Assembly (NCBI GenBank): GCA_965655095.1
Contig: OZ296655.1
Location: forward strand, 62,372,001 to 62,436,000
Source of the DNA: Haplodiscus bocki
Lineage: Eukaryota
DNA: 64,000 bases
Direction of reading: 5' to 3'
Positions 16,506-59,269 of the stretch are shown piece by piece. How positions within the stretch are numbered: the first letter of the stretch is position 1; every line of letters starts with the position of its first letter. The notes under the pieces are model-generated. The model made no database searches. It worked only from the letters and a program-made list of their open reading frames with translations, and was not told where the DNA came from. The translations under genes were made by a program, and so were the position numbers.

Positions 16506-16918
16506 TGTTACAGGATACCTAAAAAAGTATTTTGCAAAAATGGACAAAACGTCAGTGAAAACGATCAATTTACGATCAGCCAAGAAGTATGACATGTCAT
16601 AAGCTTGAAATGTCCAGTTCGACAGCTTTCGCAAACCTACTGTCGTGTTTCGACAGTGGGTATTTCAACTTAACAGCTGTCCGTCGAGTTTCAGGGGATG
16701 AGCTGAAAAAAAAACCACAAACCTACAAGATAACGGCGAGTTCCATTGGCTGATAAGTGAACTATAGGCTAAATGAGAAGTCGACGATTCGCTTTTGATG
16801 CCTGAATTCTTCAAATTCCATTTTAAAACCCTACTTTTCTGGAACTTTTCTCAACTTTGAAACAATTTCTCGGAAATTCACCTCAATCTTCTTTTCCCAA
16901 ATTCTGCGGAAAACTATA
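16506..16918 (+). repeat. 5' LTR of Gypsy B
   Basis: Starts TGTTACAGGATACC; shares blocks AAAACGAT, TGACATGTCATAA, TTTCGACA, AACGGCGAGTT, GCTAAATGAG, TGCCTGA.TTCTTCAAATT and ACTATA with 26837-27292. Confidence 0.8.
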
Positions 16919-16919
16919 G

Positions 16920-16931
16920 TGGTGACAAGAA
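16920..16931 (+). promoter_or_regulatory. Primer-binding-site-like motif (TGGTGACAAGAA)
   Basis: TGG-initiated motif 1 nt after the LTR end. The cognate tRNA is not assignable with confidence. Confidence 0.6.
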
Positions 16932-17694
16932 TAACCAAAATCATCTTTCATCCAAATCTCAACTCCATCGCAGTTTACTCTTTTCGTCTGAAATCGATCA
17001 GAATTCTTCGGCACTCAAAAATTTTTGAAACCTTCTTCACAACTTCGTAACTGCAAAATCTGAAAACGATTTAGACGTGCCAAATCGTCTCAGACCCAGA
17101 AGAATGAGTCACTGGAGCTTGAAAGCTAAGTTTTGACATAATCAGTATTTATAAACAAAACCTTCATAAACTTGGAATAGAGAATCCAACCTTAACAAAA
17201 AAGTTTTAGTATCATGGTCGTTCATATCTAAAATAAATAACACCTGCTTAAAAAGGTGAAAATCACCAACACCGCCGGTTAATACCCAATTAAATTCCTT
17301 CGCTGATTAGTTCAAAACTACAACTTTTCAAGTCCACTACTAAATTGAGTTTGGTAACAACGTGAACCTTTTCGGAGCTACCAGCATACTGCCTGCAGAC
17401 AATCAGTGTCCTTGAAAAGGCTTGTGTGAAACTATTCGACTATTGAAAAGCAAAAAAAGAAGTAAACAAATTTGGCTGAGATTCAGCAAGGAGCCATACA
17501 TTTGAAGAAGCCGTTGGTTATCAACGGATTTCGCTGACTCTTTGTACCAGTTAATTCCATGTTGCGAATTCGCATCCTAAAAAGTTACTGGTAGGACAAC
17601 AAGTAATGTTTAAAGAGACATCAGAGTATCAAAAAAAGCAATATTAGCAATCAACAAAATATAGTCTAAACAACGACCAGCGTAAACTGAAAAA

Positions 17695-18670
17695 GTGTGG
17701 CGTCGAGTTAATAGAACTTTGGTTACGGTCAAATCCAAGATGATCTTACTGGGACCTTTCACTGGCTCCAATGACAATCAAAGCAACAGGACACTTTGCG
17801 AGTTTCTGGCGCATCCCCAAAAATGGAGAATAATTGAAACGCACGATGGAATTGAAGTCGAAATAGACGAACAGCTGCAATATTTTGCACTTCGACTCCA
17901 AAAATCAGCATTTGATTTCTACCGAAATTTAACAAACGCGCCGAAAACAAGTTATGACGAAACAGTCAGAGCATTCAGAACGCATTATAATGAGAAATCA
18001 ATCGTGTTCCGTGGACGGCCTGCAAGAAAAGCATCAACAACCGAGGGAACACTTTTTGAATTTTTCGATGATTTGCAGTGCTTGGCTATGAAAGCATACC
18101 CTGAGGAGTTAAATGAGATTCGGGCTTTTTTGATAGTGCATGATTTCTTGGAAAACATCCATAACAGTCAAGATAGTGTTGCTTTGAGAGAAAACCACGC
18201 GGACGCAGAGTTAACAAGCGAAACAGTTTTAGAAAAAGCAGTACATCTGGACGCAGTCACAAGATTTATGGAAGAAGGAAGAGTCGCAGCTCTTCAACCA
18301 GAAAATAGGTAGGAAATGATTACTTCTGTGGACATGTTTATTGATTCTTCGTCTCGCTCGCGGGATTCGCGAAGTGACAACCGTGGTTCGTTCCGCGAAA
18401 AATTTTTTTAAACGGAGCAGCTCGAGAAAAACCAACCAATGCGGAACAGATCGAGGCGGAAGAGTCAGAGGGCATAACGGTTACAGGGAAGACAGATACA
18501 TAGCCCCAATACCCAGAAGATCCCCAGGCAGGCGCCAACAGTCACAATCTTGAGAAAAGTCTTCTGAAAGTGATCGAGACATAGGATTTCAAAGTAGCAT
18601 AGCTGGAACTGCGGTCAACGGTGTCACTGTGCGACAGAGTACAAAAATTGTTTGGAAGTTCTCAACATTT
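17695..18670 (+). pseudogene. Gypsy B gag
   Basis: 205-aa ORF LGPFTG...YFALRLQKSAFDFY...FFDDLQCLAMKAYP...TVLEKAVHLDAV typical of Gypsy capsid; Arg/Ser-rich linker; degenerate knuckle CGQRCHCATEYKNC at ~18610-18650. Confidence 0.8.
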
Positions 18671-18949
18671 CAAGAGAGATGGCTTTTTTTAAACTGAAGA
18701 AGGGTATTGTGGAGACGGCTGCACATTTGACACCTAAAAGTAGGGCCATGGTGAAATTGACTAGAGAAATGAAGTCAACGACAACGCAAGCGGTACAGAC
18801 GATGCAGCTGTTATAAGGCGTTTTGGCATCAGCTTCGGTGAATGGCTGCAGCAGTGTATCAGCAGCTAGTTGGAAGTTCTTGCAATGACTGGGATTCAGT
18901 GGTGCACTGGAATTCTACAAAGGAAATTTTTCACAGCGAAGGGTACATC

Positions 18950-21900
18950 AATGCTAGTAAAAAAACAGAGCTCAGAGTTTAACTAGAGCAATTTGCACAT
19001 CATTATCAGCCGCTTTTCAAGTATCTACAGCAGATACTTTTGAAAGCCTGCCCAGATCGGATTATCCGACCTAAAAAGCTTCCATTTTGTACACCAGGGA
19101 ACAAAAACTGTTTTGATGGAAGATACGCCGAACATTACCATTAAAATCGAGACCAACTACCAATGAGTTAACGTACCCGACATTAATTTCAATAGAATCA
19201 GTAGTAGCTAGGAGCAAAAAGTTACTGTAATGTGAATTAGGAAACGTAGACTGTTAGAAATTCACATCTACGAAGTAATAGTAACCCCACATGAAATTTT
19301 CCAAGTTTCAAGCAGGTTATGGGTAGAAAAACCCTAGTTAGAGACAAAGAGGGATTGTGTTTGGTACGGTTAATAAAAAAATCACAAGGAAGCTATTCTT
19401 ACAAACGAAAGTCCTGGACAGGATCGCTAAAACTATTGAGTCTGAGCATTAAACGGTTTCTGTACAAACAGAACCGACAGAAAACAGCAAAAAAGCTCAA
19501 TTTCAAGAATCACGTCAGAATTGAGGGCCAACAATTGTCTTTAACAGAATTGAAAAAAGTTGAGAGCCTATGTTATTAATTCGGGAACACCTTTTCCAAA
19601 AAAGAAATGGACTTGGGTTTTATTAATGACATAGAGTACCAAATCCAAGTGAAACTGGACGCGAAGCTTTTCCGACAGGCTTTTGGTAACATGACTTTAG
19701 ACAAGAAGAAGCAAGGAAACAAATGGAAGAAGAATTAGTTGCTGTGTATCCAATTATTCCAACTCTTTCCGACTGGGCTGCTTTGAGCATACTGGCCCCA
19801 AGAAAGATGGAACACACCGTTTAGTTGTAGACTACCGTGGACTTAAGAAACAATTAGAAAAAACATGTTGGTTTCTTCGAGGAACTACTTATGTGACCGA
19901 TTCTTCGGAAGGAAGTATGTTTTTCTCGAGCATTGTTTAGCGTCAGGGTTTCTTGAAATGTCTTCGAAAATGAAAGCCAAAACTTGACGTCCTTCAGTAC
20001 TCCAAATGGACTCTACAAGTGTAAACGTCCACCACTGGTACTGGTACCTGCACCTAGGGCATTCCAAAACCTAATGCATTTGGTGTTCAATGGTCTTTCA
20101 TAGGAAGGTGCCCTGGTGTTTCTGGACGAGATAATATTCTGCGGGAAAAAGTTTGAGGAACATTTATTACGTTTGAAGCAGGTGTTCGAGCGACCTGAAA
20201 AAACTTGACTCAAGATAAAAGGCTCCAAATGTAATTTCTGCCAGAAAAGAATTCAATTTAGGGGCATGTTGTGTCAGAAAAGGAGTGGAAGTGAATCAAA
20301 AGAAGGTGTGGGCAGCAGAAAAAAATAAATCAACAAGCAAGTTTAAGGAAGTGTGAACAGTGCTGGGTTCACTAGGTTTCTAAATGAAAATTTTTCATGG
20401 TTTCGGAAAACTTCAGTACCTCAATATCAATTATTGAAGAGAGAAAAGACGTTCTTCTGGACACCAGATTCCAAAAAAGCCCTAAAAGGGCTGAAAGAAA
20501 ACATCTATCAGCGCCAATCGTGAACTACCAAAGCAACGGGGATGCGTACATTTTAACCACAGATGCATCGTTGACTGGCGTTGGTGCCATTTCGACTCAA
20601 AAGCAAGAAGGACTTGTTAGAGTTATTGCATATGCCGGCAAGACTCTGACCAAGAGTCAGAGGAACTATTCTGCAGCAAACTGTGGTGTTTCTACTGTGG
20701 TGCACTTTACAGATCATTTCAGATTTATCTACTGGGTCGGAACTCTGTAATTGTCACAGATCACCAAGCATTGGTATGGCTCATTAGTTTCAAAGATTCT
20801 GAAGGTAATATTGCAAGAGGGCTTGATTACTTCTGAAAGTTTAAACCAGAAAAAAGACATAAAGCAGGAAAAGACATACCGCATTCAGGTTGTCGGACAC
20901 AAGCTCAAACCAAAGAGAGGGGCCTAACGAAGTTTGTGGCCACTTTAACAGAAAGAAATACAGAAATACAACAACGATACAACTAATCCATGGCAGGTAC
21001 AGCAACACATTGACCAAAAAAGCATCGAAATGAAGCAATAACCCAATAGAAAAGTAACCAAGGTCTTTGTTTGGCTGGAAAAAGGAACAGAGATCCAACA
21101 AGCGACGAATGAGGGGACTTTAGAGGAACTCTGGAAAATTTGGGTTCCTACTATCTAATTAGGAATATTGAGAAAGTTGATAGACTTCTTTAACAGAAAA
21201 GCAGAAATGAAGAAAGTGGACAAGTAATGCAACAAATTATTGTTGCTGAGACCCAAATTCCACTTGTTCTAACTTTACTCCTTGAATCTCCGCGTACGGG
21301 ACTTTTTGATATCGGCAAAACGTATCACATGCCCCAGGAACATTTTTTGGCGTGAAACGTATTGTGCTGAACTGGGTTGATAGCTGTGACTAATGCCTCA
21401 GAAGAAAAAGAACGCCGCAATAACACAGTCACAATCCCAGAAATTGGCAGCCTGACCCTTGCCTGTTTCGGAGGGTTGTAGGTACGTGCTATCAAATGCT
21501 GATCAGTTGAGCAAAAAGTACGGGGCCGTAACAAGGCCAAATCAAGAGGCCCAAGCAGCTGCTCGAGTCCTGTTGGAAATTTAGATCACTGGAATTGGCT
21601 GCCTTGTCAACCTCCACAGAGATAAGGGAACAATTTTCATGGCTGACCTTTTCTGTGAAATTTATCGGATTTTGGGCATTGAAGAGACTTCTACCACGTC
21701 AATTCACCTCGAGGGGAATGCATTGATTAGGAAGACGAATAAGACAAGGAAGGAAAGCCACCCTGAAAAGGTGGATGACCATCAGAGTGAATGGAGATGT
21801 TACTTTCAGCTGGTAATGATGGTACCGCACTTCCTTTCATGCAGTGACCAAAAAAAGCCCTTCCTACGTTGTGCTTAAACGTTTTCGGGACTGCCATTTG

Positions 21901-22300
21901 ACTGTATGTACGTGACACGGCACACAGAACTTTTTCCAACATCAAGCGATTTCATTTTCAAAAGGAAGAGATAAATGCAGAGGGCACATCATTTTTTGAG
22001 AACAGAGATGGAGGTGCAACAAACTCACCAAAGAACATTTTTCAATTATCGTGTTTATGGTCCTACGTACAGTGAAGGAGATTAGCTTTTTGTTTCCCTT
22101 CTGACTGTGAAAAAAGGAGAAACAGAAAAAACTCACTTCTTTTTACAGAGGACCCCACAATGTTGCAGAAAACTTTAACAATGCTAGTTTTTGTGTCCGC
22201 CATGCAAGAACGAGGAAACTTCTAGAATTTCAAGACGACAGATTGAAGAAATACAAACCTCGAGAACAATTTTTCGTACGAATGGTAAAAGTAAGCAGGC
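18950..22300 (+). pseudogene. Gypsy B pol (PR remnant, RT, RNase H, integrase)
   Basis: RT RLVVDYRGL (~19820), FQNLMHLVF, LVFLDEIIF (~20115); RNase H TTDASLTGVGAI...VIAYAGKTLTKSQRNYSA and TDHQAL; integrase HRDKGTIFMADLF...TTSIHLEGNALI; GPY/F-like YRGPH (~22145). Confidence 0.9.
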
Positions 22301-22759
22301 CCCAGCAACAGGAAACAACTTCTCCAACTGAGAAAAAGGATGACTTGTTTTTCGGAATAGACGATTTATAAACAGTACTTCCAGGCCACGCAACACACAG
22401 TATGTTAGCAGAGAAGACAAGCAAAAAGGAATACACAGCCCGCATCAAACGGAACAATATTTCATAGGGTGGGACCAGCGAAGAATCGGGTTAGAGTATC
22501 AGTCCAAACATTGGCAAAGAAAATTTTAAAAGTGTCGGTAGATTTAGCGCAGGTGCGGCAAAGCCCGTTTCGAAAAAAGCAGAAGTCCGTACCACTGCTG
22601 ACAGAAAAACCTACGCGGGTCCCTTCGGTACCAAGACGATATGCCGACTATTTCGTCTATATTGACAACGATGATAACTGTGTTATCGATAATGCTTTTC
22701 CTTCAAGAAGCAAGTGAGTGGTATCAACGGACCAAAAAGGTGACTTAAGCAATCAAGGT

Positions 22760-24830
22760 AAACTTTTGTTCAAATTGTTTTTGATTCCATTTGTCATCAT
22801 CAGGTTCGTCCCCAAGGACGAAATTAAGACAGTGGGTTATGACTTTGAGGAAATCTTAACGAGATCAGTCTTTTCCCCAATTGACCAAACAGCAATGCTC
22901 TCGAAACTCAAGGGCCGGTACCATTAAAACTGAGGCGACAATCCTTCTTCATGAGAACAATCTTGAAGTAGAGTTAAGACTGTTCCACTATCAGACATCA
23001 TACACGGTAGCAAAAATTAAGAAAACTAACGTATACGTCGACGATTTCCTTTGCGCCAAGAATCGAAAACACTACCGGGTTTATACTTGATATCATTTAA
23101 AAGCTGCCAATCGGTATGAACTGGAAACAGATTTATGGTACAAGTGTTAGAAAAAACAAAGAATTTTGACTCAATTCAAAGGAAATCGAGAAACTGGAGC
23201 AAGCCAAAACGGAAACATTTGATCACGAGACTTTTGATTACTCAGCTACATTTGTGAAAGGAAAAGGGCACGGCACAGGTTATTTTCAACCTCAGGAAAT
23301 GGTTAAACCACCAGTTAAAAGTCTAAACGGATCTGTGTTAATTGGTGAGACACTCGCGATAGGCGAGCTGAACGCCACAACAAAAATATATGCGCAGGGT
23401 TTTTTCTTCACTTGGTAGGACCTTTTTGGGATTTATCTTGAGAGGTCCAAATTGTCGAATGATTTCGAGCACTTTTTGTGGTGTACTTAACGCGAAATAC
23501 CACAAATTGTGTCTGGTGGAAATTTGTAACAATTAGAGCGATAACGAAGCAATAAAGTTTCAAGGAGTAAAAAGCAGTTTACTATCACGTTTCCTTAGTT
23601 CATACCGTCATTAGCGTTTTGCCGTTGAGATCGACAGTATACCTCTCAAATTTTTCAATAGATTTCTCTTTCCGACAATCATCCAGAATGTGGATGTCAG
23701 ATTCCATTTACTGGATCTACCCAAAACAGAATGTAACATGCTTGACCAGACCATGATCACACAGTGTCGGTCGGAACTTGTCTATGCGCGCGAGTTACAA
23801 GAAATGGAAGATATCTGAGTAGGAGTGAAATTTCAAAGTTGTCAAATGAATCAAACAAAAGCTAAAATTAAGATCGCATTCACTTTTAACTCAAACAGTG
23901 CTGTATGGGGAGTAGGAACGGAAAATATACATCTTGAGAGAGCAGGCGGAGTAGTCTATTTTCATTGATCTGCAAAAATGGAAGTTACCATAGTTGAAAA
24001 TCATTATTGCACAGACGAAGTGCCGGTTCAATCGAGGCATGGCAAAAAAACGGTGCCAAAATTTAGGAACCGCATCTTAAAAGTCTTTTATCAAAAATAT
24101 ACGTTGACTGAGTGCAATCCTCTCAACCCTAAGTTGATGAGACTTTCAAATGGCACAAGGATTTTTGTCGGGAAGGGTATGAGATCAACTGGGTTAGACC
24201 AGTGAAAGTCTACAACGAAACAAGACGAGAATGGAGACCCCACGATGTCATCCGTTTGTGGAAAAACGGACCGTTCACAGTAGAAACCTATGGAGCCAAT
24301 TCGAGCGAGGGCTCTGGGAAATAGGAGAACTACCCTTGCGGGCAGAGGTATACTGGTGTCCCCAGGGCCATTACTCCCACGATCAATATTTTCATCCGAA
24401 TATACAACATGGACAGCTGGGTTTAAGTGGGGCTGTTATCAAACGTTTCGAAAGAGTGAATAAAGACATATTGGTTCTATGGTGGACTGCCAGGGATATT
24501 ACGACTGCAATCCTAACTTTATCATTATTAGGTAGCAAATTGCGTTTTTTTTCATGGATCTTTTCTGCAACACCAAACTCAAACAACTGGAAACTAAGAC
24601 TTTTTCCGCTCTACAGCCGATGGACTCGTTTTATGAGTATAACCAAAATCTGGCAGAGTTTCAGTAAATGAAGACAGATAACAGTCGACAGCAAAACAAT
24701 GTTGGTACGGAGTCAAAAAACTAACGGAGCTATTGCGTTGAAGGTAAAAATTTAAACAAAGAACAAAGACCTGTAATAGGATTAAGGTTTCATTCAAGTA
24801 TTGCACATAATCTAGATTTTGATTTGATCA
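22760..24830 (+). pseudogene. env-like glycoprotein, chuvirus-G-like (class III fusogen type)
   Basis: Hydrophobic signal-like LLFKLFLIPFVII followed by VGYD(F/C); later AGGVVYFHxSAKMEVTIVENHYCTDEVPV...TLTECNPLNPKLMRLSNG matches the chuviral glycoprotein pattern GEVVHIIKCxxVEVxxxxxxxCYxELPV...ECNPLLPxMY; C-terminal hydrophobic segment ITTAILTLSLLG. Sits in the env position after integrase. Confidence 0.7.
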
Positions 24831-25309
24831 AAAATGGCTAATAGACGCATTTTTGAGTACGTCTACTATTTACGCGAACTCTACCAAATAAATTCAGGTT
24901 TGTGGCACCAAGACTGTACCGGGTGCAAGGATGCTTTTATGGCCATCGGAAATTTACTCCCGAGGACAGTTTGAGTCCTGCAAACATCAAATCAAGAGCT
25001 GATGTACCGCCAACTCAACTGATCGGGTTTTGATTGGAGTTGGAGTTTTCCAAAATGAAAAAAGAGGCCTTAGAAGACGAGCTAAGGTCAGCTGCATATC
25101 AATAAAATGAACGACGACCAACTGTGCCCAATACAATAACTGAGTCCGATGTAAGAGCGCAATGAGATTAAAAAGATAAAATAGGACAATTGACGTAGGA
25201 ATTCGATACGCAGCTCATATTGATATGGAGTGAAAGCAACGAGACAGGATTAAAAGAAAAAAATATTCCAAGAAATCAAACAAAAATCTTTTCACAACGG
25301 TTTCTCCCA

Positions 25310-25543
25310 ATGTACGAGATTTTGTTTATCCACGCCAAAACTTACATAGAGACAATGAGAAGGAACTACGAAAATTTGGCTGCTATAACCCATCCGAATG
25401 TCGGAGGATGAGAGGATCATTTCAAGACCAGATACCGATGCTATGCACTTTTGAACGACGAGAAAACCAGAGAAATATACTCTCCATGGGGCCATGAAAA
25501 AGCCGAGGACGAGCTATCAAGAGAAAACAACTGGAGTGGATAA
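25310..25543 (+). pseudogene. J-domain (DnaJ-like) accessory ORF 1 of Gypsy B
   Basis: Single frame MYEILFIHAKTYIETMRRNYENLAAITHPNVGG*EDHFKTRYRCYALLNDEKTREIYSPWGHE follows the J-domain consensus YEILG...IKKAYRKLA..HPD.GG.E.FK.I..AY.VLSD..KR..YD.YG.E. HPN (CAT CCG AAT) is one transition from HPD. Confidence 0.8.
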
Positions 25544-26456
25544 CCGAGTTTTGGGTATTTTCATCCGGAAAAAAACCTTGTAGGTTGGATTCACCTACTA
25601 TGGTAGAATGCAAGAAGTGTGGACAATTCGAAAATAAAACAAACGATGGGTTCCACCTCTTAAAAAGTTTGTAGGTGGAAAACATCCACTCTAGTGTAAT
25701 GCAGGAAGTATGGACTTTTTCAAAAACAAAGTAATTGGTGGTTTTCACTTTTTACCTTTAAAAAAATCAGGCAAAACCAACTGTTTTGTTCTGTTCTACG
25801 CGGATTTTACCCTTTAAAGTTTAAGCAATGGATGTCGACACAAGTTGCAAGAACAACTAAAACAAATTCGTACAGTTTTCATGTTTTATGAACTCTCTCT
25901 TGCTTAAGTAGGCATCCAAAATTTGAAGGCACTGTTTACAACATCCCTGAAGTCTTCGTAGTCAAATCAGAGAGACAAGCAAGAGTGTTCCACGTTGAGG
26001 GTAAACACAGCAAATCCCATAAAATTGCAATTGCTGTGACGCTCTAGCCCTTGTCGTTGGTTGAGAGGGCAGACATAAACGAGGCAAGTCTCACTACCAT
26101 CCGGGAACAAAGTGTTGGCCCGATGAACGAGTGTAATAGCCTGAAACAGCAAATAAAATCACTCCAATCGGGAGTGTCGGCACTTCAGAAGAAGACAGAA
26201 GTGACCGTAGGGTAGCCGCAGTTTTCGAAGGACGCGGCCCATCAGCGCCACCTTACGCTCGACCGACAGATGAAAACAATCGCTGGCGTGACGAAGAAGT
26301 TGCAGAGTGAAGAGTCCGATCACCTCGCGACGGAGGAAGAGCTTGATGAGGAGAAGGAGCAACCTTGAAGCTTGCTCGGGCAGCCGAAAATCCAAAAGGC
26401 ACCGGTTTGACCCTAGACCGTGAGCCGAAAACTTGCAATCGCCACCTTGCAAAAAA

Positions 26457-26700
26457 ATGAGTGAGGTTCTACGTTTGTGCCAGCAGCTGATGATACCGAA
26501 TGACACCCCAATAAATCCAACTACACGGAGGTTCCGAAAGCTGAATTAATTGTGTCACCCAGACAAAGGAGGAAATCAAGAAGCGTCTGTCCGGCTACAA
26601 CGGGTTCACCGAATTCCTACTGTCTAAGACGCCTGCAATGTAGATGAACTCGAAGGAAGCGAAGCTGCAGATAAAGTTCTCAGTTTCAGGATCAATCTAG
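26457..26700 (+). pseudogene. J-domain accessory ORF 2 of Gypsy B (HPDKGG intact)
   Basis: Single frame LCQQLMIPNDTPINPTTRRFRKLN*LCHPDKGGNQEASVRLQRVHRIPTV*DACNVDELEGSEAADKVL; HPDKGG is encoded at 26556-26573; two point stops. Confidence 0.85.
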
Positions 26701-26836: not shown

Positions 26837-27292
26837 TAAAAAAAGATACCCCAAAAAAATATTTCGAGAAAATGGTTTAAAATGTCAATAAAAACGATAA
26901 GTTTACAATCGGCCAGATAATTATGATTATGTGACATGTCATAAATCTGGGCTGTGGAGTTTGACAGTTTTTTGCAGCGAATGTTGGTTTTCGACAAAGA
27001 ATATTTTCTATCTCGACAGCCTTCCGTCGGTTTTTGATCGTTGAGTTGAACAAAACCATAACCTTACCAGAAAACGGCGAGTTTCGTTTAACGCTATTTG
27101 CTGATAAGGGGTATATAAGCTAAATGAGGAGTCAACAGTTTTATTTTGTTGCCTGAGTTCTTCAAATTGCATTTTGAAACGCTACCTCTCTTCTTCAAAG
27201 AAAACAAACCTATTCATTTTTCAACGTTGAAACACATTCGCAAGAAATCCTCCGCAAACCTCTTTTTTTCCCAAGTTCGGCGGCAGACTATA
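26837..27292 (+). repeat. 3' LTR of Gypsy B, preceded by a polypurine tract (AGAAGGGAA, 26828-26836)
   Basis: Colinear similarity to 16506-16918; strongly diverged; no matching TSD found. Confidence 0.8.
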
Positions 27293-27599
27293 CTGTCAAA
27301 GCAATTCGTTTTGAAAAGGATCACATTTATCTGAACCCCAATGTTTTGTCTTAAGTTCGTTCGATTTCGTAGAACCAGGTTTTATACAATACGTACTGCC
27401 TGCGGATCGCTGCTGCTGGAAAAAATCTAAGTTTTTGGGTGTAGAAGTGACTCTTTCTGTACCTCTGGCTAACAACCATACGCGGCAATCAACCATACGC
27501 TCCTGCACAGGGTCCACGGCGTGTCTGCTTTTGCACTTCAGGTACTGCTTTACTCTTTCTTTACGTTCATATTGCAATATCTACCCATAGGTTTCTTTT

Positions 27600-36900: not shown

Positions 36901-38559
36901 TAGGTGGAAAGCCTATTGTACTTGAGCGTTAGAAAAATGACTTACGTCTTCTCAAAGTGACTATTTTTGTGGCTTTTTCATTTAGGTTTTCCATCAAAAC
37001 ACCATCTACTTAGAAACGCGCAGTGTAGCCACAGGAAACTTCAAGACACCAAAAATTACATAATTTTGTTCCTGAACAAATCCAAAACATGCTTCTTTTA
37101 ACTTTCGGAAAAGTATGTTGAGGACTGAGAAGTAACGACTCTTGAAAACTCGCTGACGAAGTAAAAGCGCATTCATTTTTCCTCTTGTTGTGACTTGCTT
37201 AGCGTTCCTTTTTCGACAAGGAAACATGGATTTTTGGAGAGTCCCTCACTAGCGTTTTTTATGAGAATCGTTTATTTAAAGGTGTTGTAAGAAGCAAAGC
37301 AGTCCTTTTGGTTTTGTAGTGAAAGTTCGTAAGATGTTGTACAACAGTGTTCTGACCTTTCATGGGTTTAAATGTTTCGGATTCAGTCCATCGGGTTCGA
37401 CGGAGTTACGTAACCAGGCAATGTTATGTGGTTTTTCTAGGGTGGCCAGGCACTTCAGAATAATGCAAAACGTTGTGCCTCAGTTGAGGAGCTTGGAGAT
37501 AGAAATGTGCTGCTCGTTGAACCCTCTGCATGCCAGCATGTTTTTGGTAGTTTTGTTCCGTTGTTCCAGCGTTGGGTACTGATCATCAAAGAGGAGCTTT
37601 GATTCTTCCCCAAAAACAAAAAACTGGGGTGTGTAGCCTGTCAATTCGTGTACCGAAGTGCAAAGAGCCATCATCAATTATAAGAGTTGCTGAGTCCACC
37701 TGCCTTCGAAATCAGTGACAATTTCTCCCAAAATGTTCAGTCAGAATCGCTTCATTCGTTCACTAACGGAATTACGGCATTTGTTTGTGCGTGTTTTATC
37801 AACTTGGACAGAGTGTATGAGATTTCGGAAGAGTTTAGATTCAAAGTCTCAGCCCTGTGTGCGTGCTCAAGGGAACGTCAAACGGCGAATTCATGGCTCA
37901 GGTAGGGCTGTAGCAAAGACTTTAGCTGTGGCATCCGGCAATAGAACTGTCTCATACAACTTGTTGTAAATATTTGCCAAAGAATACTAGGTAGGAGTTT
38001 TCTATGTGAAAACGGAAGTTGTGCAAGCGAATCAAAACCAATAAAAGCAAAAGCGATACCGGGGGCCAATTGACGAAACTGTGTCTATAGTTTAGCTTAG
38101 GGCTGTTGCGTTGTTGACAAGCAAGACAACTTGAGACGACCCATTCCCATCATCATTCCTATGTCCGGGCCATGAAAACCTAGTTCGCAGATTTTCGAGA
38201 GCTTTTATAACACCTAAATGGGCAATCGTTGATGAATTGTGCATTGATTCTAAAATTAGGGCTTTCATTGTTGTTGAAACAAATTGATGTAGGTGATTTT
38301 AGCGTGTTCTTGAACCTTCAAAACTTCGGCACATGATTTCATTTACGGCTTTGAAAGAATCAAAACTGCTCCAGAGAAACAAGTGACCCTTGACTGGCCT
38401 GGCAAGATTGGAAGATGATGTTGTTTCCTATTCCTGACCGATGAATTACCAGTGCTAAGCATCCAGTTGTCTTTCTGTGCTTTTTGCATCTCATTTCTGA
38501 TCCTGTTTTTTTTCTGTGTCCCGTTAGGACAACTTCTAGCTACTCCAGCGGCTTTTAAA

Positions 38560-38980
38560 CCGTTAATGTGTTTGTCGAATTGTGGAAAGTTTTTGTAATG
38601 AGTTTTTTATACCTTTCGACCAAATAAGACGGTCGAGTCCCTTCAACCGTCTAAGTACAAGTATCTTTCGATTTTGAATTTCTGCTTATGTTGCATAATG
38701 ACTTTCAATGCTGCACGTAGAGATCTGGAGATCGATTTGTATTAACATCCAAAAGGTATCAAGTTATAAACGAATCTTTTTGGAGCAATTTGTCTTGCAT
38801 AAATTTGCTCTTTTAACGCTTTCCACTCCAACTTTGGGCACATTGTTGGGATTTAATGACAAATCTACTTGGCCTTACCTGCTGCAATCTTGAAATCTGG
38901 TAGAAAGCAATTGGGTTTTGATTTATCGAATCAAATGGGTCTTCACTCACTTCTAAAAATTCAAACATCTTTGACTTCTC
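38560..38980 (-). pseudogene. TARG1-like macrodomain within Gypsy C pol, between RNase H and integrase (copy 1)
   Basis: Across frameshifts: EVSEDPFD...PDFKIAAGKAK...KRFVYNLI...YKSISRSLRAALKVIMQH...GLDRLIWSKV*KLITKTFHNSTNTLTV, versus TARG1 GDLF...DxxMGAGIA...RYIYYLIT...KPTYENLQKSL...GLDRLQWENV...VFEATDIKITV. Confidence 0.8.
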
Positions 38981-41042
38981 TGTTTGCCAGACTATCTGCA
39001 TGAAAACAAAATGTGGTTGACTTTTTCCTTAATCTTCTTGTCGCAAAAAAAGATGCTGCTGCTCTAGCTTTAGTTTCGCGTGCTACTTCTGGTTGGTGCC
39101 TGGTTCCTTTTCCTCGCTCGTGCGGGGATTGTTGGACAATTCTGTTCCCTTTGCCTCATCGCTATTGTGCGATGGATGCTTTTCCTTGACAACCCGAAAA
39201 AGTACCTATGACTGGTCTTTGGTGTCGTTTTGGCTGGGAATCCTGGACAGAGTCAGCGTTTTCAAAGCATTGTTCAGTTCTTTTTTCAGAAAAGCCTTTT
39301 CAGACGAGCAAGAACATTTTCATATTTAAAAGCTGCTAGTTTTCTGGCTAACATGCCGTTAGATCATCTGGGTCATTGATTTAATGAAACCAGTTCAAAG
39401 CCCTGTGATCAATGACAAGTTGTATGAAACTTTCTTCCTGACATGTAGAACTGAAATGACATATGAACTTCAAATTAGCCAAAATTCTTGTTTGGGAGTA
39501 GATTATCTGATCTGAGCTTTGCTGAAAAACTTAGATCCGAGATAAATTACGCCTTCGGAGCCATTCTGAACTTGAGAGAAACATCTGCCAATTGCATGCT
39601 GGGCAGCATCAGCATACAAAATGAAACAATATCTAATGGTCGAGAAAGCCAAAATTGGGGCCGAGATGAGTAACTTTGAAAACGGCTGGAGCTTGAGACT
39701 TGACTTTCCATTGACTTTCCGGTCAGTTGATGCAAAAGTTAGTTTTTTTGAAGCCTTAAACATATATTCAGGAGTATGAACAGATGCGTGAGACGTTTTT
39801 ATTTTCTTAAATTGATTTTTTCGGTACCGGATACTGGACCTTTCATGGGTTTAATTGTTTAGGATTCAATCCATCGGATTCGGCGGAGTTATGTAACCAG
39901 AAAATGTTCTGTGGTTTTTCTAGGGTGGCCAGGCAATTCAGAATAATACAAAACGTTGTGCCTCAGTTAAGGAGCTTGGAGATAGAAATGTGCTGCTCGT
40001 TGAACCCTCTGCATGCCAGCATGTTTTTGGTAGTTTTGTTCCGTTGTTCCAGCGTTGGGTACTGATCATCAAAGAGGAGCTTTCATTCTTCCCGAAAAAC
40101 AAAAAACTGGGGTGTGTAGCCTGTCAATTCGTGTACCGAAGTGCAAAGAGCCATCATCAATTATAAGAGTTGCTGAGTCCACCTGCCTTCGAAATCAGTG
40201 ACAGTTTCTCCCAAAATGTTCAGTCAGAATCGCTTCATTCGTTCACTAACGGAATTACGGCATTTGTTTGTGCGTGTTTTATCAACTTGGACAGAGTGTA
40301 TGAGATTTCGGAAGAGTTTAGATTCAAAGTCTCAGCCCTGTGTGCGTGCTCAAGGGAACGTCAAACGGCGAATTCATGGCTCAGGTAGGGCTGTAGCAAA
40401 GACTTTAGCTGTGGCATCCGGCAATAGAACTGTCTCATACAACTTGTTGTAAATATTTGCCAAAGAATACTAGGTAGGAGTTTTCTATGTGAAAACGGAA
40501 GTTGTGCAAGCGAATCAAAACCAATAAAAGCAAAAGCGATACCGGGGGCCAATTGACGAAACTGTGTCTATAGTTTAGCTTAGGGCTGTTGCGTTGTTGA
40601 CAAGCAAGACAACTTGAGACGACCCATTCCCATCATCATTCCTATGTCCGGGCCATGAAAACCTAGTTCGCAGATTTTCGAGAGCTTTTATAACACCTAA
40701 ATGGGCAATCGTTGATGAATTGTGCATTGATTCTAAAATTAAGGCTTTCATTGTTGTTGAAACAATTTGACGTAGGTGATTTTGGCGTGTTTTTGAACCT
40801 TCAAAACTTCGGCACAGGATATCATTTACGACTTTGACAAAATCATAACTGCTCCAGAGAAACTAGTGACCCTTGACTGGCCTGGCAAGATTGGAAGATG
40901 ATGTTGTTTCCTATTCCTGACCGATGAATTAACAGTGCTAAGCATCCAGTTGTCTTTCTGTGCTTTTTGCATCTCATTTCTGATCCTGTTTTTTTTCTGT
41001 GTCCCGTTAGGACAACTTCTAGCTACTCCAGCGGCTTTTAAA

Positions 41043-47543: not shown

Positions 47544-48110
47544 AACAAAATTTAGTAAACTTCCCGAGAATGAAAATGAAGAAGTAAGGTTCCTTAAAAA
47601 TTAGCGAAAACAGGGTTTTCGATTAAAAAACTGTTTTGTTTTCGAAAATTCCAGTTGCTTAAAAAAATGGGAAATTGTAGCAAGTTTGATGTAGAATGCA
47701 TTAAAAAGTATCTGCATTCTACTCTCTAAGTCTTTCCACTTGGAAACAGCTAAACATCCCCCATTTGGTTTTGAAAAAATTTTTAGAAATCTCGTTAAAA
47801 CCAAAAAACGACCAAATTGTGAGTTGTTAAAAAAATGAATAATTTCGAAATGAGGAAAATAACCGATCCGTTTGCGAAAAACTAAGAAGGCTTTTATTTT
47901 TGAAAGAAAAACTCTTTGTTCTAAAACGAACTTGTTATGAACAGCTGCTTGACAGTGTAAATGCCGGTGGTATTTTTAAACACCTGATTAGTGGCCATTT
48001 TTTGAAAGCAAACCACGCTCTTTTTCCTGAAGCTGGTCCAATAAATAATTATGCAATCCTTCCAATCACTTGAGGACTTTTTGGAAAAACTTAACACAAT
48101 CAATGAAAAT

Positions 48111-48648
48111 TTTACATTTACGTTCAGACACAGAGTAAACAAGTAAATGATCTAACTGTTCAAGTACTCACCTTTTATACATGTACAGATACATAATCAG
48201 GAACATATATTTAAAAAAGTTTTTGAGTTTTTTACGCTTTTTCAAAACGTCCTAACATGATGGGAAGGAAAAGTTAATTATTTAAGGGATCAAGGTGAAG
48301 AAAAAGAACGTGATTTTCTTTCAAAATGATATGCCACTGATGATATTATGTTTTTCAAAAATCACCTATAACTGCAAGTTTATGCAATCTGTGTTCATCC
48401 GTTATCGACTTCTACAGTGTAGTGGTAGTGTTATTGGCAAAAATAAATCATCGGCCGGGTTGTTTGGGGTTCAATTTTAACCAACGTCCCAAGTCTTTGG
48501 CTTTATGGCCTGCTATTTGAGGAACTCTGATTCACTCAGTTTGAGAGAAACATTTCAAGAAGGAGGAAGTTTCACAGGAATGCTTGCTCTCGAAGTTTGA
48601 AGTGGATGAAACGATGAAATGGCCATTGAAACTTTATTGAAACATTCC
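48111..48648 (+). repeat. Left terminal inverted repeat (part paired within window)
   Basis: The reverse complement of 63483-64000 aligns colinearly (AGTGTAGTGGTAGTGT, TGTTTGGGGTTCA, TGCTATT.GAGGAACTCT, GAAGTTTGA; position 64000 pairs with 48111). Confidence 0.85.
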
Positions 48649-49119
48649 AATACTTTAGAATTGAAGAATTTGAAGGTATTTTTTTCGGATTGATTGAAGT
48701 CATGGGCATTTTGAAAAAACTGTTTTTTACAGACACATAGAATCAAAGCTACATTTATCTCTGCCATAAACAAAACAGTTTCAAAAACTATTCCTCCTAA
48801 AAAATAACAAGTTGTCATCAAGGAAAATTAACAAGATGTTAGAAGTGTGTTTCGAAAACATACAAAACAAAAATTGAAAGGAAGAAAAAATCCCAAACTC
48901 AATTGACTACTGCTGTTGAAAAAGAAAAATGTAAATTCTGTCAATCCGTTTACGAACCTCTGATGAAGATGCCCACATTCAGTCGATTGAGTTCACTATT
49001 GAATCACTAAAGTGGGAAAGTTGTGAATGCAGTTTCATTCAGTCAAGTTACAAAAAGTCATTTAGAAACATGAACACCTCCTTTTAAAACAGGTCAAAAA
49101 ACAAATAGTGACATCTGTT

Positions 49120-49470
49120 AGAAGTTTTTTGTGTTTCACTTTTTTTAAATGTTAAGTGAGCACAATATTGACGACTTATATTAGGCAGAGAGCTTTTGTT
49201 TACCACTGGTCTATGAATTATAACAAGACAATTTAGGAGATAAATTCAAAATTTGATAACGGAGAACGTTGCGAAGACCAATAAATCTTTTTGGATGAAT
49301 CCATTTTGCCATGAAGGTTGAAAAAAAACAAAAGTTCTATCCTCATAATCCAATATTGAAGATGTCTCCGTTTCGAAAAAAATTGGTGAACAAAATTTCT
49401 TTTATTGTTGACAATACTTCTATTGTCAAACCAATTTGTAATGATTAACCTGCAAGAGTTAGACAACCCG
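49120..49470 (-). pseudogene. Possible adenain-like cysteine protease remnant of the Maverick
   Basis: Weak motifs SIVNN...H...FFFNLHG...RQYCAHLT resemble IVN...H...YFDSYG...CxxYCxY. Confidence 0.35.
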
Positions 49471-50399
49471 TGTGCAAATCAACAAGAGTTTTTAATGTGG
49501 TTTGTTTGAAGTTTTTGCTGAGCAAAGGTGACTCTCCTAGCAACTGATCCGTATTTCAGTTGCATATTGCCACCGAAAGTGAACGTGATAGTGATAAAGT
49601 TTTTGACTCACCAATTCCGAAACTCTAACACGAGATGATTCAAATGAAAAAAATTGTTTCGCGACTTACTTTTTTTGACTTAGACTATAGCCATAAAAAA
49701 CTAGGAGTACGATTTTCAACCTACTTCAATGCTTTTGAAAAACCTATACGAGTGTTCGCTTTTTACTAATTTATTGTTCTTTTCTCGACAAGCGCTTTTA
49801 AAATCTCATCCTATTAAAAAAGTTCTATACCTATAAAATTGTCTTCTTTAAAGGTAACTCCTCGAATCACGCTGGTCCGGAGACCCACTTCTGCTCTGAG
49901 AAATTTTCTTTCTCGAAGGATTATCTGAAAAATGACTCTGGTGAAATAACTTATTGCCGACACTTTCCACCAAAGTTTTTCGTTTTTTTTTGTTTCCTTC
50001 CTTAATATAAGTTAGACAGCATAGAAAAAGTTTTAGATTCGGTTCTTGTTCATTTATGATGATCTTTGAGAAAAAAGTTTTTAGGTGAAACATGTTCTTC
50101 CACGTTTGTGGCAATTTTATTTAAAAAAAATTGCAAAGTAATGTCTTGACTTCGCTATGGTTTTCATTAGATAACACAGGCAAAATCAATTTAAAGAAGT
50201 TTAGTATCATTTTTGCTGCCCTATCAGTGTGATCCATTAGGAATTGCTTACGCTTGTAACTAACACTCAAATCTCCAAAAGTTTTTTGAGAAAAATATCG
50301 TTGCCGAATTTTCTTTCCGTACGGTTTATTTAATTTTATTCAATTTACTTTTCCTGTATCTGACTTCTATATTCAGCATCTTAACCTGTATTTTAGACG

Positions 50400-51090
50400 G
50401 AAGGTCAATACTAAAGCTGTACAAACAAAACTTAATGTTGATATTTGTGAAGACTTTTCAAAATACTCTGAAATATCCCAGAGACAAATAACAAGACTTA
50501 TTGTTTCTTTGATGAAAGACTTGAAATATACAGGATTGGGATAATTTTGGACAGTCTATATAACAGAAGTATAGCAGAAAAAAACAATTCCCAAGGTCCT
50601 CCATGTGTGTAAAAGTCAGGAAATAGAGAACCACATCTGTGAAGATGTAAAAGTTGTTGGTTCCGCCAACTTTTAGCCAAGCGAACATGACAATCTTTTC
50701 TCGGGTATGGAAATAGATGAAAGATAATTTAACAGTACCCAACTGATTGGAAACAGAGATACGGAAGGATCGTCCAAGAATTTAAAAAGAAAACGAAACA
50801 ATTGATGTCCATTGTTCAAATGAATCACACAATACACAATCACGAATAGGACCAAACACATTAGTCCAAAATAAGAAAAAATGGATGAGCAATAAGAGTA
50901 GTGGGAAACGTCATTGAAGATCTGGGTAAATTGAAAGAAGTTTGGGATGATAAAACCATTTTTTTAACTGATAAGCTATGAATTTCAACGGAGAAATTTT
51001 CGTAGGAATTGGAAAATAGGTAACTGAAAAGTTTGCAGATCCATCCGTCTAATCCACCGACATCTGTATTAAAAGCAGAGTCTTGAAATA
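50400..51090 (+). pseudogene. Maverick retroviral-like integrase remnant
   Basis: VDICEDFSKY (VIDxFSKY), NN*CPLFK*ITQYTIT...ISP (NWxxxLxxIxxxYNxT...SP), NFNGEIFV (NWTxEIFxI). Confidence 0.5.
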
Positions 51091-52339
51091 AACAAATAAA
51101 ATTCCAAGTGCAACCAACAGAATGTTTTTGTAAAATATAAAAAAATCAGATGAAATGATTTTTACCCAAAGTTTTAGCTTTTTTTGTTTTATTGATAGTT
51201 CACCAATTTTGTGTAATTGCTGTTTACTTTTCCTATATATACCATTTTAAAACTAGTTTTATCGGCTCTAAAAAGTCAAAAGAAGTGAACTTTATTATCT
51301 TATAAATGGGAAAAAAACGAACTACAAGACAGGAACACAGAGAAAGTCATCAAATCATTACGCTATTGAACAGAGCAATCAAAAAAATTAAGTAGCATTT
51401 TGAAATCTGTAGAACAGAACTTGCTTCTTTCCTAAAAAGAACTAAGTTCAGATAATGTAAAAAAAAGAGAAGCAAAGTTTTCAGTGTAACACCAAACAGA
51501 ATAGTATTTAAAAATTTGAATTGACCTCATTGAACTTACAAATGGTATTTATTGGTTTTGTAGATAATTCCAGTGAAGATACGAAACAAATACTTTACGA
51601 TATAGATATTTTTCATAAATGTAACAATTAAGATGATGACCTAAATTATTACCTAGCTTATACAAATAGACGAAGAGGGGAATCAGAAACGGGAAAAAAA
51701 TTGATCCTAAACTTCGATTGATTTACTTCCATTTACATCTTGAAAAATAAAGAATCACCATATAAAAAGAGAAAATAAATAAAATTAGAGCTAAGAGGAA
51801 TAATTTACATTAGTGGAGAGACATTTGAAACAAAAGATGGAACTGCAAACTTTTACCCTACTAAAAACACACGCTGGTAATGTACATCAACGAAAAAAAC
51901 TCGCTTCACATGAGTGTCCATCACCCAACTTTTTAACAGACTCTATCAATTGAAAAACTGGTAAATCTGTTTCGTTTTTTAAAAATGGAATCCGGGGAAA
52001 AACTTTTACTGTGCCGCCGATTGTTTATTTGTTGTTTATTTGATTATGAATTTAGATTAGATTTTCAATCTGCTGTTTTCAATTACTATCTTATTTACCA
52101 ATAGAATTAAGAAAAGTGATAACAGTGTGGAATACGCCACCGCAGCCGAATGACTTCAGACAAATGACATTACAGAAACCATCAAACAAAAATACTTTCG
52201 GAAAGAAAGAGTGAAGTTTTGGTGAAGCTTAGCAAAGCGGACGTGGCTCAAAGAACTACCCAATCGTTCCACGGACGGATTTAACAAAGTCATTGTTGAG
52301 AATTTGTCTAGTAATGGACTTGTTAGGTTAGGTGAAGAA

Positions 52340-53385
52340 TATGGTTTCAGTTTTATCGAAGGAGAACACTGAAACACTTATTAATCAGACAAAAGCAAGA
52401 CAGCCAGCAACGCTAAAGTTTTTGTAAAAAAACAATGAATACCTACTCACCATTTACATCAATAGAGACAATGTTAAGAAATTGGGTTTAGGCTGTAACT
52501 TGCTTAGAGCTGTACAACTCGGTTTTCATATTTACTACCTGTAAGAACAGAATTTTAGTTCACACACCGTGATAATGTGAAGATATTGAAACTTCCAAAA
52601 AACTAGATGAATTGATAAGGCAAAGAAAATCAAAAAATTTCAAATTAAATGTAGAAGAAGTAAAAGATAGGCTTGGAAATGAAAATTGGGGGCAAAAAGT
52701 TTGAGTTTTTAGGTTTTGAAGATTTTGATTTGAAAAAAAATTAGGAATTTTGAAAATCCAAAATTTAATGAGTTGGACTACAAGGTGTTGTGATTGAAGT
52801 TAAAGTGTACTGATATAAATTGTATCAGACAAAAATGTTTTGATGCTGAACAAAAAGCGTTTGCGTTTCCACCTCGTTCAAATGAAATGAGAGAAGTTTT
52901 TAGCAGAATAAACACCTTTTTACTTTAAGAAACCGGCGAAAGTGATGAAAAAATAGCTCATAGCAAATGATATTTTAAAGAAAATTTTTATGACTTCACT
53001 TGGTACGAAAAAGGACTCCCGAAAACGTTAAATTGATTGTGTTTTCCCCACAAATATAGGAATCACAAAAACAGAAAGTGATGAAGATCGTCTTACAAAA
53101 TGACAAACCTGTCATTATAGGAAGACTTGATAAAAATCTTTTGAGTTCTGATTCTACTGATGGAAGTTTGTAGGTGGAACTTAGAAAACATTTTTCAAGT
53201 ATAATTTTACCTAAGATAAACCCTATGTTTATAAGATAAGTAAAAAACGAAGAATAAGAGTTCATGGAAAGGAATCAAATATGTTTGATATAGGTTCTTT
53301 TTTTGTCTTGAAGACGGTCATATTAAAATGGATGGTTTCAATGGCAAAACTTTAACTTTCGCAATCTTAATATAAATTGAAATAA
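52340..53385 (+). pseudogene. Minor capsid (penton-like) gene remnant 1
   Basis: C-terminal FFCLEDGHIKMDGFNGKTLTFAILI matches the Polinton minor-capsid C-terminal pattern (D..G..VDF.G..T.F.L). Confidence 0.5.
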
Positions 53386-53529
53386 AATTGTGTTTTAAAT
53401 TCAATAGTTTTTTCAATTTTAAAAACAAACAGACTGGAAAACGGAATCAATAATTCAAATTCCTTGAAAACAAAAGATACTGATCCGTTTTTGTGCAGAC
53501 TAAACCAAAACTACGAGAAAAGTGAGATT

Positions 53530-54490
53530 ATGAATGACGAAAACCAACAGTCTTTTTTGATACACGGTTGAAATAGGACACAACTTTTCAAAGCACGAAT
53601 AATGATGGAAATAAGGATTACCTGGCTTGAAGGTATTTTTTTACAATTTCCTAAATAATTAGCTCCGGAAAAAAACCATGTTCCCTTTCCCTAGTTACCA
53701 TGAACAGGAACCTGTACATCTAAACAGTTTCACATTTGTTTTGTACCAAACTACAGCAGCGAAACTTTCAAAACTCTCAAAAGTTTTAGCAAAATAATAT
53801 TAAAATGAAATAAAAATAGCCGATTATGCTTTTCATTCTTTCATAAAATTTAAGGAAACTGGCAGTTTTTTTATTCGTGGCCTAAAAAAACTAATTACGG
53901 ATGTCACCATAATGACGAAGACTTTGACATGTTTTGAACATGGAAGTACTCTTTGATGAAACTGGATACAATTGGGGTTATAGTTATTAAGAACCAAAAG
54001 CAGAAGAATTGGACCATGAACCATTCTTATATGAAGTTGAAGACAATGAAAAAACATCAGATGAATAAGTAAAAACACGTAATCACTTGTTTTTTTGGTA
54101 TTGATACAATGAAGGCAGGAAAACATACAAGTAGTAATTTACGATAGGATGAAATTTCTTTTCTTAAACTCAATACCGGTAGTTATCCAACAGTTGGAAT
54201 AAAAATCTAATTTTGAAAACATTTGTGAAAAAGAATAAATTTAACTACAAAAGAAAAGAAATTCATTTCGAAAAGTGATGCTTTCGATAAACCAAATTTG
54301 AGTGGTTTCAGAGAACAACACTCTTTAGTTTTGCTTTAAACAATACTCCTGTTTTTAATTTGTTTTGTGAACCAGAAACAAAAATAAATTCTGCCTTGAA
54401 CTTTTCAACAATTTAATTAAATATTGATGAAAAACAGTCTATTTTTTGGTGTAACTTTGATTTTAACTTCAATGATAGAATAAACTTTTA
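53530..54490 (+). pseudogene. Minor capsid (penton-like) gene remnant 2
   Basis: IHFEK*C...LFSFALNNTPVFNLFCEP...IFGVTLILT is paralogous in pattern to the upstream copy. Confidence 0.5.
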
Positions 54491-54959
54491 AAAATAATTG
54501 AACTATTAAAGTTGAAAACACTTTGTTTTTGTGTTGGCAGACGTCAATAATCAGACGCAGTAAAAATTCATGCTGATATCTAAAACGCATCAAAAATTGA
54601 TAATTGGTTTTGTATTAAATGCCACAGATATAAGACGACGGCTCTCAACGACGATAATATTGAAGCTGAACGGTTAGGTCAGCCTAATAAAAATATGGGA
54701 TAAGCTTCTGTTGAAGCAATCATAAAACTAGTAATTGTTACAATTGCAATGATGAATCCTGGAAAGCGTGAGAAAATGGTGCAAAAAAAGGTAGTGCAGA
54801 GGTTTCTAGAAATCTTGAAGCACAAAAAAATCGTGAAATATTTCTATCGACGAAAAAGTACAACTACGATAAAACCGTCTGCGCCACTACAACTAAACAC
54901 TATTGTTGAGCAGAGATTAGAAAAGAAATTAAATGATGTGTGTAGTTTCAAGTTTTCTC

Positions 54960-55375
54960 TCTTTTTCTCACTAAAGTATTGATGACCTATTTCAGAGCAA
55001 TAAACCGTAAACAAAAAAGAAAAATAGTTAAAAAAGCGGTCTACATTTTTAAAATCTCTTGGTACTTCTTTGATTTTTGTTACAACTACTTGGGTTACAA
55101 AGGCTGTCACAAGACGTGTCTTGACCGTATTACCAGTTTCAAATGGATAAGCATGTAGATGGACAATTAATATCGAAGTTTTAAATGGATTAGATATGCA
55201 AATGTAGAGTAAACATGGAAAAAATCTGAGAAACCACAACAATTTATTATCGCTAATGAAAAAAGAATGGAAAACTTTACAAGAAAACACGATAGACAAA
55301 GAAGAAAATTTAACTTATTTGAATTATTTCAATTTGTAATACGTAAAAGGAAATCGGAAGGATTCTTTTTCTGAG
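54960..55375 (+). pseudogene. Maverick conserved hypothetical ORF with a hydrophobic hairpin
   Basis: FLKSLGTSLIFVTTTWVTKAVT...VLPVSNG...KTLQENTIDKEE; two hydrophobic segments followed by a charged helix. Confidence 0.4.
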
Positions 55376-55669
55376 TGAAGTTATAACTATGAACTTTTCA
55401 TAAAGGAATGAAAAAACTGAACTTCGCTGGGAGCAACGTTACTCTTAGAGCCACATCTAGACATTTCCCAGAACTGAACACAGAAGTGAACACTAGCGTT
55501 CTCCCGGAAGGTGAACGAGTTTGAGAGTTCTTTTTATCTAAATTTTGTCAAAAGAATAAAACGGTGGTAAATTTTTATTGAAGAGTCAAAAATAGGTGTA
55601 AAGAATGCAAGAAAAAGAAAATTATTTGTCTTTTTTAAAGTTTATAGAAGTATTATGGTTTCAGAGGAT

Positions 55670-56230
55670 AAGTTTGTAAAGGAAAGAAACAATAGTTTGA
55701 TGTCGGACCCCTTTATAACAAAAAAAACTAACGTAAAAAAATTTGAACAATTTGAAAATAAGGTTGCCAACAAACTTGGTTCCCTTCGAGGAGGAACTTT
55801 TCTTCTATTACCAAATCTCTCGAACAGTATCAAGGTCTTCATACTGCAATTCAAGATTCAAATAATGCTGAATATAAACCTGGTTTTGTTGTTCTTGATG
55901 ATATGTCAGAATCTAAACAAAAACCAATGGACTTATTTATCACAAGGGACATCATAAAGAGTTAGATGTATATCACTTTTAACAATCTTTTCTTGACTTA
56001 CCGAAGAGAACAGTTAGAAACAATAGTGATATAATAATTTAACTTGAACAAATTTCAATTGATGTAAAACTTTTTCACAGAAGCCTTGCAGGAAAAGTTA
56101 TGATAAACCTAAGGATCTTTTTAGTGAAGCATTGAAAAGTTAGGACTTTTTTATATTTGTTTAGATGGAGCTAAAAAGAAAAGTGAAGGTTATTTTTGTA
56201 TTTCTACCGAAAGGAAAGAAATATTTATAG
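55670..56230 (+). pseudogene. A32/FtsK-like DNA packaging ATPase remnant
   Basis: Degenerate Walker A (SLMSDPFITKKT), Walker B FVVLDDM, LFITRD(H) (F.RGRH), frameshifted QSFLDLPKRTVRNNSDII (QSYFxLPKxIRxN). Confidence 0.85.
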
Positions 56231-58610: not shown

Positions 58611-59269
58611 AATGTCTTTTTTGCATTTTTTTGTGAGTTTTGATTTCTTACGCAAAGCTTGAATGTATTTCTCAGGTAATTTACATAGATAATAACTTGG
58701 TATTGTATCATTGTTAAATTGTGTAATTGTTTACACCTCATAACTCCAAATTGTATTATCGCCCTCAGAAACTCCTGTTCTCAAATTTGCTTTTGACTTA
58801 TTCTTTGTATAATAATCTTTGAACTCATTTTCTTCTTTTTTCTTTTATAAATGCTTGGAGTATTGTTAAGTTGGCTGAAGAGTGTTTGGTAATTTTCTAG
58901 TTCTTTTTTTACTGACACCTTTTCATCTATCCATTTAGCATTGCCTTTTTCACATAAAATTTTTCGATGAGATTTACAGTGGCTCTCATAAAAATTTCTG
59001 CAGATACTGCCCGCTTTCGAGTTATAGCGACTATATCTTTTTTCTTTGTCGATTTCAAAAAAAAGCATCAAAACTTTGCCCACAATTTTTCCCCTCCTAA
59101 GTCTCATTTTAATGCTTTTTTCTTTTTGCTCTTATCGTAAAACTTTCCAGTGAACACTTAATTGCCTGTGCAATTTTATTATTCAAGGGAGCTGTCAATC
59201 GGAGTTTACTGAAGTTATCAATCACTACTAAAACTTTAAAAATTGCCCATTTTTCGGGCCATATTCAGT

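Follow-up and report, generated by a model that had tools for sequence, protein, structure and literature searches.

Putative Hsp70 co-chaperone genes behind env in Ty3/gypsy elements of Haplodiscus bocki

Two J-domain genes of Haplodiscus bocki lie inside a decayed, LTR-bounded Ty3/gypsy element, and the same genome holds several families of recently inserted elements with intact J genes downstream of env. We propose that the products of these genes are probably type III co-chaperones recruiting the host's Hsp70, and that the client is most likely the particle or RNP of the element itself. J-domain and Hsp70 form a textbook pair, and retroelements depend on host chaperones. A retroelement encoding its own Hsp70 co-chaperone was not reported in the part of the literature reached by our search. 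The stretch analysed, here called the window, comprises 64,000 nucleotides (assembly GCA_965655095.1, contig OZ296655.1, positions 62,372,001 to 62,436,000 of the forward strand).

The decayed element and its two J-domain genes

The following features of the window, all on one strand, make up the element:
16514..16921, + strand: 5' LTR, aligned part, 76% identical to the 3' LTR over 404 columns
17686..22260, + strand: gag and pol, decayed, with RT, RNase H and integrase in Ty3/gypsy order
22700..24841, + strand: env, decayed, of gB/Monjiviricetes-fusion type; start approximate, stop overlapping the ORF-a start codon
24834..25543, + strand: ORF-a, decayed accessory gene (about 230 codons) whose product would consist of small N-domain, coiled coil and C-terminal J-domain
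24906..24926, + strand: apparent HxxCxxC, an out-of-frame reading past a frameshift private to the window copy and no feature of the family
25310..25540, + strand: J-domain of ORF-a, with HPN at 25391-25399 and an in-frame stop at 25409
25910..26700, + strand: ORF-b, about 260 codons, full-length tandem paralogue of ORF-a, J-domain with HPD at 26556; end approximate
26845..27295, + strand: 3' LTR, aligned part, downstream of both J genes, which sit within the element

The LTR pair aligns with a score of 308, compared to a shuffled maximum of 47, and its low identity marks the element as old. An LTR pair, gag, the order RT-RNase H-integrase and a gB-type env after pol are all present, as in env-carrying Ty3/gypsy elements. 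The match of the window env to PF24664 is weak and below the cut-off (E 0.0026), while an intact gB-type env of the same genome, which itself reaches 67 bits on PF24664, is 31% identical to it over 184 aa (E 2e-18); three env proteins from the F-type clade gave no match. A DNA search of the 1.5-Gb genome for sibling copies gave at least 41 matches, with 40 of 68 candidates scored. We examined the 29 best non-self loci, 28 of which span the gene and are 71-76% identical to the window, and RT was present upstream of the gene in all eight sibling stretches for which extra DNA was fetched. Among the scored candidates, no young and intact copies from the window's own family were seen, the counts being lower bounds. 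Elsewhere in the window, a direct repeat of 300 nt (copies 2483 nt apart, 95%, positions 37354-40136) and a 16-kb AT-rich block with inverted arms of 155 nt on either side (48046-63909, 74%) probably represent other mobile elements.

The original prediction was that positions 24834-25543 may hold frameshifted parts of the same protein, a question that we settled by per-copy feature counts in place of a consensus. Of the aligned copies, 15/27 have the ATG at 24834 and 23/26 the stop at 25541; once the stops that recur across copies are mapped, a single uninterrupted path stays open between 24834 and 25541. Since start and stop are common to the copies, the path between them is stop-free and the same layout recurs in outside proteins, a single gene is confirmed at the sequence level. 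Three of 28 natural copies read in one frame from the start to the J-domain, namely L015 (229 codons, three stops), L018 (201 codons, one stop) and L005 (166 codons, none). The window copy is dead: compared to most copies it carries frameshifts near 24894, 25090, 25140, 25266 and 25280, plus several in-frame stops. A separate J-only ORF starting at 25310 was rejected, as the ATG there is Met in only 2/27 aligned copies. The predicted ATG at 24834 exists, yet it overlaps the end of env rather than directly following it; the env-frame stop at 24839 is common to 22/28 aligned copies. This overlap (window 24834-24841) is compatible with stop-start coupling. Pooled dN/dS values within the window family were 0.81 and 0.70, from pairs that are not independent; such weak selection would be expected after death and constitutes no proof.

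The J-domain that had been placed at 25310-25543 passes the Pfam DnaJ cut-off over 25310-25540 (28.5 bits, cut-off 27.8, E 1.7e-6, with the in-frame stop read as X), and the predicted HPN is indeed read at 25391. Whether the ancestral motif was HPD can be judged from the copies: among 26 aligned tripeptides HPD is the commonest form (8) and HPN occurs twice, the others being singletons or pairs, while 15 of 28 copies have D as third residue and 4 have N. As HPD is the commonest form among ORF-a copies, the HPN of the window copy is read as decay on the strength of these alignments, and HPN as a fixed state of the family was rejected (8/26 versus 2/26). HPD, the hallmark of a J-domain protein, is thus found in the ORF-a family and not in the window copy itself.

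A structural model of the decayed copy predicts a helix over residues 63-144, which we read as a coiled coil, and has pLDDT <50 in the first 36 residues. The model of this decayed copy showed no clean J fold: a Foldseek search with it gave the J-domain of DnaJA1 as single hit (E 4.1), and a VIA search with the same model returned coiled coils only, with the J region barely covered. Coiled coil and C-terminal J-domain were part of the architecture foreseen originally, which in addition placed a zinc motif at the N-terminus. HxxCxxC does appear in the literal translation from the ATG at 24834, and this is the observation in favour of an order of zinc motif, coiled coil and J-domain. However, the window differs from 25/28 copies by the frameshift near 24894, just upstream of the motif, and HxxCxxC occurs in none of the 28 copies in any of the three frames checked. 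Because this private frameshift precedes it and 0/28 copies carry it, the zinc motif is, judging from the aligned copies, a reading-frame artefact. The triplet for its second Cys encodes Cys in only 2/28 copies, all 13 natural in-frame N-termini examined hold one or two Cys and neither CxxC nor HxxC, and the intact outside homologues lack HxxCxxC as well. The architecture with a zinc motif is therefore scarcely credible. Assignment to type I DnaJ, or to zinc-binding J proteins of another type, was likewise rejected, since the Cys-rich zinc motif of such proteins is missing (HxxCxxC in 0/28 copies, no CxxC in 13/13).

ORF-b starts with an ATG in 18/27 copies and is broken in the window near 26394 and 26448; five natural copies stay in a single frame for 252-262 codons. 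An AG stands immediately 5' of its start in 15/27 copies. The two J-domains had been described as highly divergent after an ancient split, which agrees with our comparison: DNA similarity between the two ORFs does not rise above shuffles (score 27, shuffled maximum 35), and the profiles align over 225 columns with a probability of 98% at 17% identity. The first 45 residues alone, without J, align with a probability of 96.7% (hhalign), a score reached by 0/60 column shuffles. In a tree with 14 host J-domains the J groups of ORF-a and ORF-b are sisters (86/91, below the starred threshold). Duplication and double capture had both been considered as origin of the pair; because the N-domains are homologous without the J-domain, tandem duplication inside the element appears to be the better reading. 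The N-domain of ORF-a and ORF-b gave no match in a PDB sequence search, a word search with it retrieved 4 ENA proteins only, and the Atlas neighbours of the ORF-b N-domain score at most 0.85, a lead only, with all Atlas searches below 0.9.

Intact J genes in young elements and outside assemblies

A DnaJ search of the genome, in which 150 of 666 candidates were scored, returned many equal-scoring stop-free frames of 300-430 aa. The order pol-env-ORF4, with ORF4 denoting the intact J gene, was found at 11 of 14 sampled loci; the remaining three comprise one without pol-env-J order, one tandem array and one host TM2+J gene. In L092:1-10000, units of about 2.7 kb are arranged in tandem, each with a 267-aa J frame of ORF4 type. 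ORF4 ends just 5' of the 3' LTR, and the LTR pair is 99.8-100% identical in 4/4 elements checked. Since Baculo_F matches the env of L081 and L083 and not that of L085, L087 or L091, the label 'F-type' holds for part of this clade only.

ORF4 is under purifying selection as estimated from dN/dS values of 0.05 (L087/L095), 0.09 (N-barrel, L081/L083) and 0.41 (L083/L090), with altered tripeptides in L096 and L089. The env genes of L081 and L083 are 99.8% identical, while their J genes (L081:8163-9137 and L083:8056-9135) differ with a dN of 0.39 and saturated dS, from which we conclude that the 3' cassette has been exchanged. The ORF4 model (pLDDT 77) predicts a beta barrel at the N-terminus together with a long helix and a J fold, and it matches J-domains with Z 9.5 (rmsd 2.2, 72 aligned). 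Database relatives of ORF4 number 76, all from ENA, and may stem from the same species. Several further traits of the young elements were noted. The C-termini of ORF4 proteins (e.g. L087:9060-9155) carry a conserved CC..CxxC cluster after the J-domain, a possible metal site that has no counterpart in ORF-a. In the pol of L081, L085 and L087, RNase H and integrase are separated by an insert resembling a Macro domain, with E 4.7e-6 to 0.026 and two of the three passing the Pfam cut-off. Upstream of young ORF4s the DNA is pyrimidine-rich with TTYAG near the start; contigs of four runs gave no usable evidence on splicing of the post-env gene.

How do these genes relate to those of the window? We computed a quick RT tree of 38 rows from elements of this genome, confined to stretches with an RT piece of at least 100 aa. 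In this tree the ORF4 elements make up a clade of their own (99); the window family falls outside it and joins, with weak support (82), a gB family lacking J. A sequence link between the N-domain of ORF-a/b and the barrel of F-type ORF4 was not found with hhalign (probabilities 2.1, 0.7 and 0.5%, with scores reached in 1, 8 and 7 of 60 shuffles). A single clade of all element J-domains is neither rejected nor shown (p-AU 0.43).

Outside this genome, a profile search over 1.84 billion representatives for ORF-a-like proteins yielded five proteins of 197-316 aa (P0093, P0094, P0103, P0109 and P0151), stop-free, HPD-bearing and of the same layout. They match DnaJ with E 5e-13 to 6e-16 (49-59 bits), four of the five match the profile end to end, and HPD is present in 5/5 full-length homologues with a complete J-domain. 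Their best identity to loci fetched from this genome is 29-46%, and the four of five that were looked up derive from Logan or ENA. For P0109, no loci were found in the viral or metagenome contigs searched.

Candidate functions of the J proteins

We favour element-encoded co-chaperones because the genes lie within the LTRs behind env, form a tandem pair, have HPD as their commonest tripeptide and possess intact homologues, and because ORF4 is under purifying selection. The window J-domain and the outside homologues match the DnaJ profile, as type III/class C J-domain proteins do. According to the available part of PMC3486835, J-domains stimulate Hsp70 and deliver clients, for which the His of HPD is needed; J proteins are encoded by polyomaviruses, Molluscum contagiosum virus and phage RB43, and the viral ones hijack Hsp70. 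In the elements, the HPD loop would stimulate the Hsp70 ATPase, the coiled coil would oligomerise the J protein, and client choice would fall to the small N-terminal domain. The most likely client would be the element's own Gag, its RNP or its Env complex, at the stage of assembly or of uncoating. The strong evidence for selection comes from the F-type ORF4, whose N-domain shows no sequence link to that of ORF-a.

Could the J proteins serve counter-defence instead? They might divert Hsp70 from the small-RNA silencing machinery or aim it there (Argonaute/PIWI loading), and the small barrel would recognise a silencing protein or a chromatin mark. The predicted SH3-like barrel of the ORF4 N-domain has Tudor among its matches (Z 6.5), but KOW scores as well (Z 7.0, a tie), and Z <8 may reflect a common arrangement; for the N-domain of the window family, with its pLDDT <50 and blank PDB sequence search, no fold was assigned. 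The ORF4 swap between L081 and L083 is of a kind often seen in conflict genes, and TRAF/MATH genes in the same slot of other elements suggest a slot for host manipulation. In C. elegans, a host J protein is needed in Hsp70-dependent Argonaute loading, but the available part of PMC11194074 reports no interaction of DNJ-12 with the PIWI protein PRG-1. On balance, we regard counter-defence as rather unlikely. The same applies to a wider proposal, in which LTR retrotransposons with env in this animal lineage would keep an exchangeable post-env slot, filled in two or more RT lineages that differ in env class by a 'reader barrel + coiled coil + J-domain' that aims Hsp70 at silencing or antiviral proteins, making these genes the first retroelement Hsp70 co-chaperones and agents of counter-defence; this, too, seems a long shot. 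Alternatively, the J-domain might be a captured passenger or a structural module that has ceased to engage Hsp70, the protein acting via its coiled coil and N-domain. The J-domains do evolve fast (pN 0.32-0.48 between families), and in a related intact family the slot is taken by a coiled-coil gene that lacks J, but the retention of HPD in both paralogues, in 5/5 full-length outside homologues and in divergent young families makes a passenger or structural J-domain improbable.

Known systems and other post-env genes

Co-chaperone genes of the proposed type would extend several known systems. The errantiviruses of PMC13524379, env-carrying Ty3/gypsy elements in an operational sense, share gag-pol-env between LTRs and a chuvirus/gB-like env beside a gypsy pol with the window element, which differs by its two extra J-domain genes between env and 3' LTR; the available main text mentions no DnaJ, J-domain, chaperone or accessory, and its 7 supplement files contain no DnaJ, Hsp40, J-domain or ORF4. 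Modular, family-specific genes 3' of pol that are exchanged among lineages are known as bdelloid ORF3 (GDSL esterase, DEDDy exonuclease, coiled-coil, TM; PMC5408684) and plant aORFs (PMC7264820), whereas the cargo here is a J-domain co-chaperone behind a full env. Neither DnaJ nor J-domain is mentioned in the available main texts of these two papers. Viral type III J proteins (polyomavirus T antigens, the Molluscum contagiosum JDP and phage RB43 Rki), as far as covered in PMC3486835, likewise join a J-domain with HPD to unrelated domains in a parasite genome, with a presumed hijack of Hsp70; in contrast, the present ones belong to a reverse-transcribing element, have the J-domain C-terminal after a coiled coil, occur as tandem paralogues and are co-chaperones by prediction. 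The available parts of PMC9004415 and PMC11836539 name DnaJ solely as host genes, and that of PMC6338049 names other accessory domains. A J-domain gene in an LTR element was not found in any paper within the openly accessible literature searched. Both parts have precedents, extra ORFs in LTR elements on one side and viral J proteins on the other; what appears new is to find them combined.

Two reverse-transcriptase lineages that differ in env class carry J genes, which are duplicated in one and selected and swapped in the other, while other lineages carry TRAF/MATH or uncharacterised genes in the same post-env slot. The slot resembles the accessory genes of complex retroviruses, here in invertebrate-type gypsy elements. 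Isolated natural J-domains can be assayed directly, which bears on whether genomic parasites steer Hsp70.

When J-gene profiles were compared with gB-env stretches of other families, including the closest intact one, 0/24 matched, indicating that such elements can do without the J gene. By env and RT, the intact family closest to the window element (L130:2360-3757 and L132:2238-3692, both - strand) has a post-env ORF of 466-485 aa with weak coiled-coil hits and no J. Two further gB-env elements carry a post-env TRAF/MATH gene (L103:7021-7788, + strand, and L101:1490-2515, - strand; Pfam E ~1e-16), preceded in L103 by a 159-aa ORF without Pfam match. Another gB-env family (L100:6627-7712, also L099, L110 and L112) has a post-env ORF of 362 aa with no convincing Pfam match.
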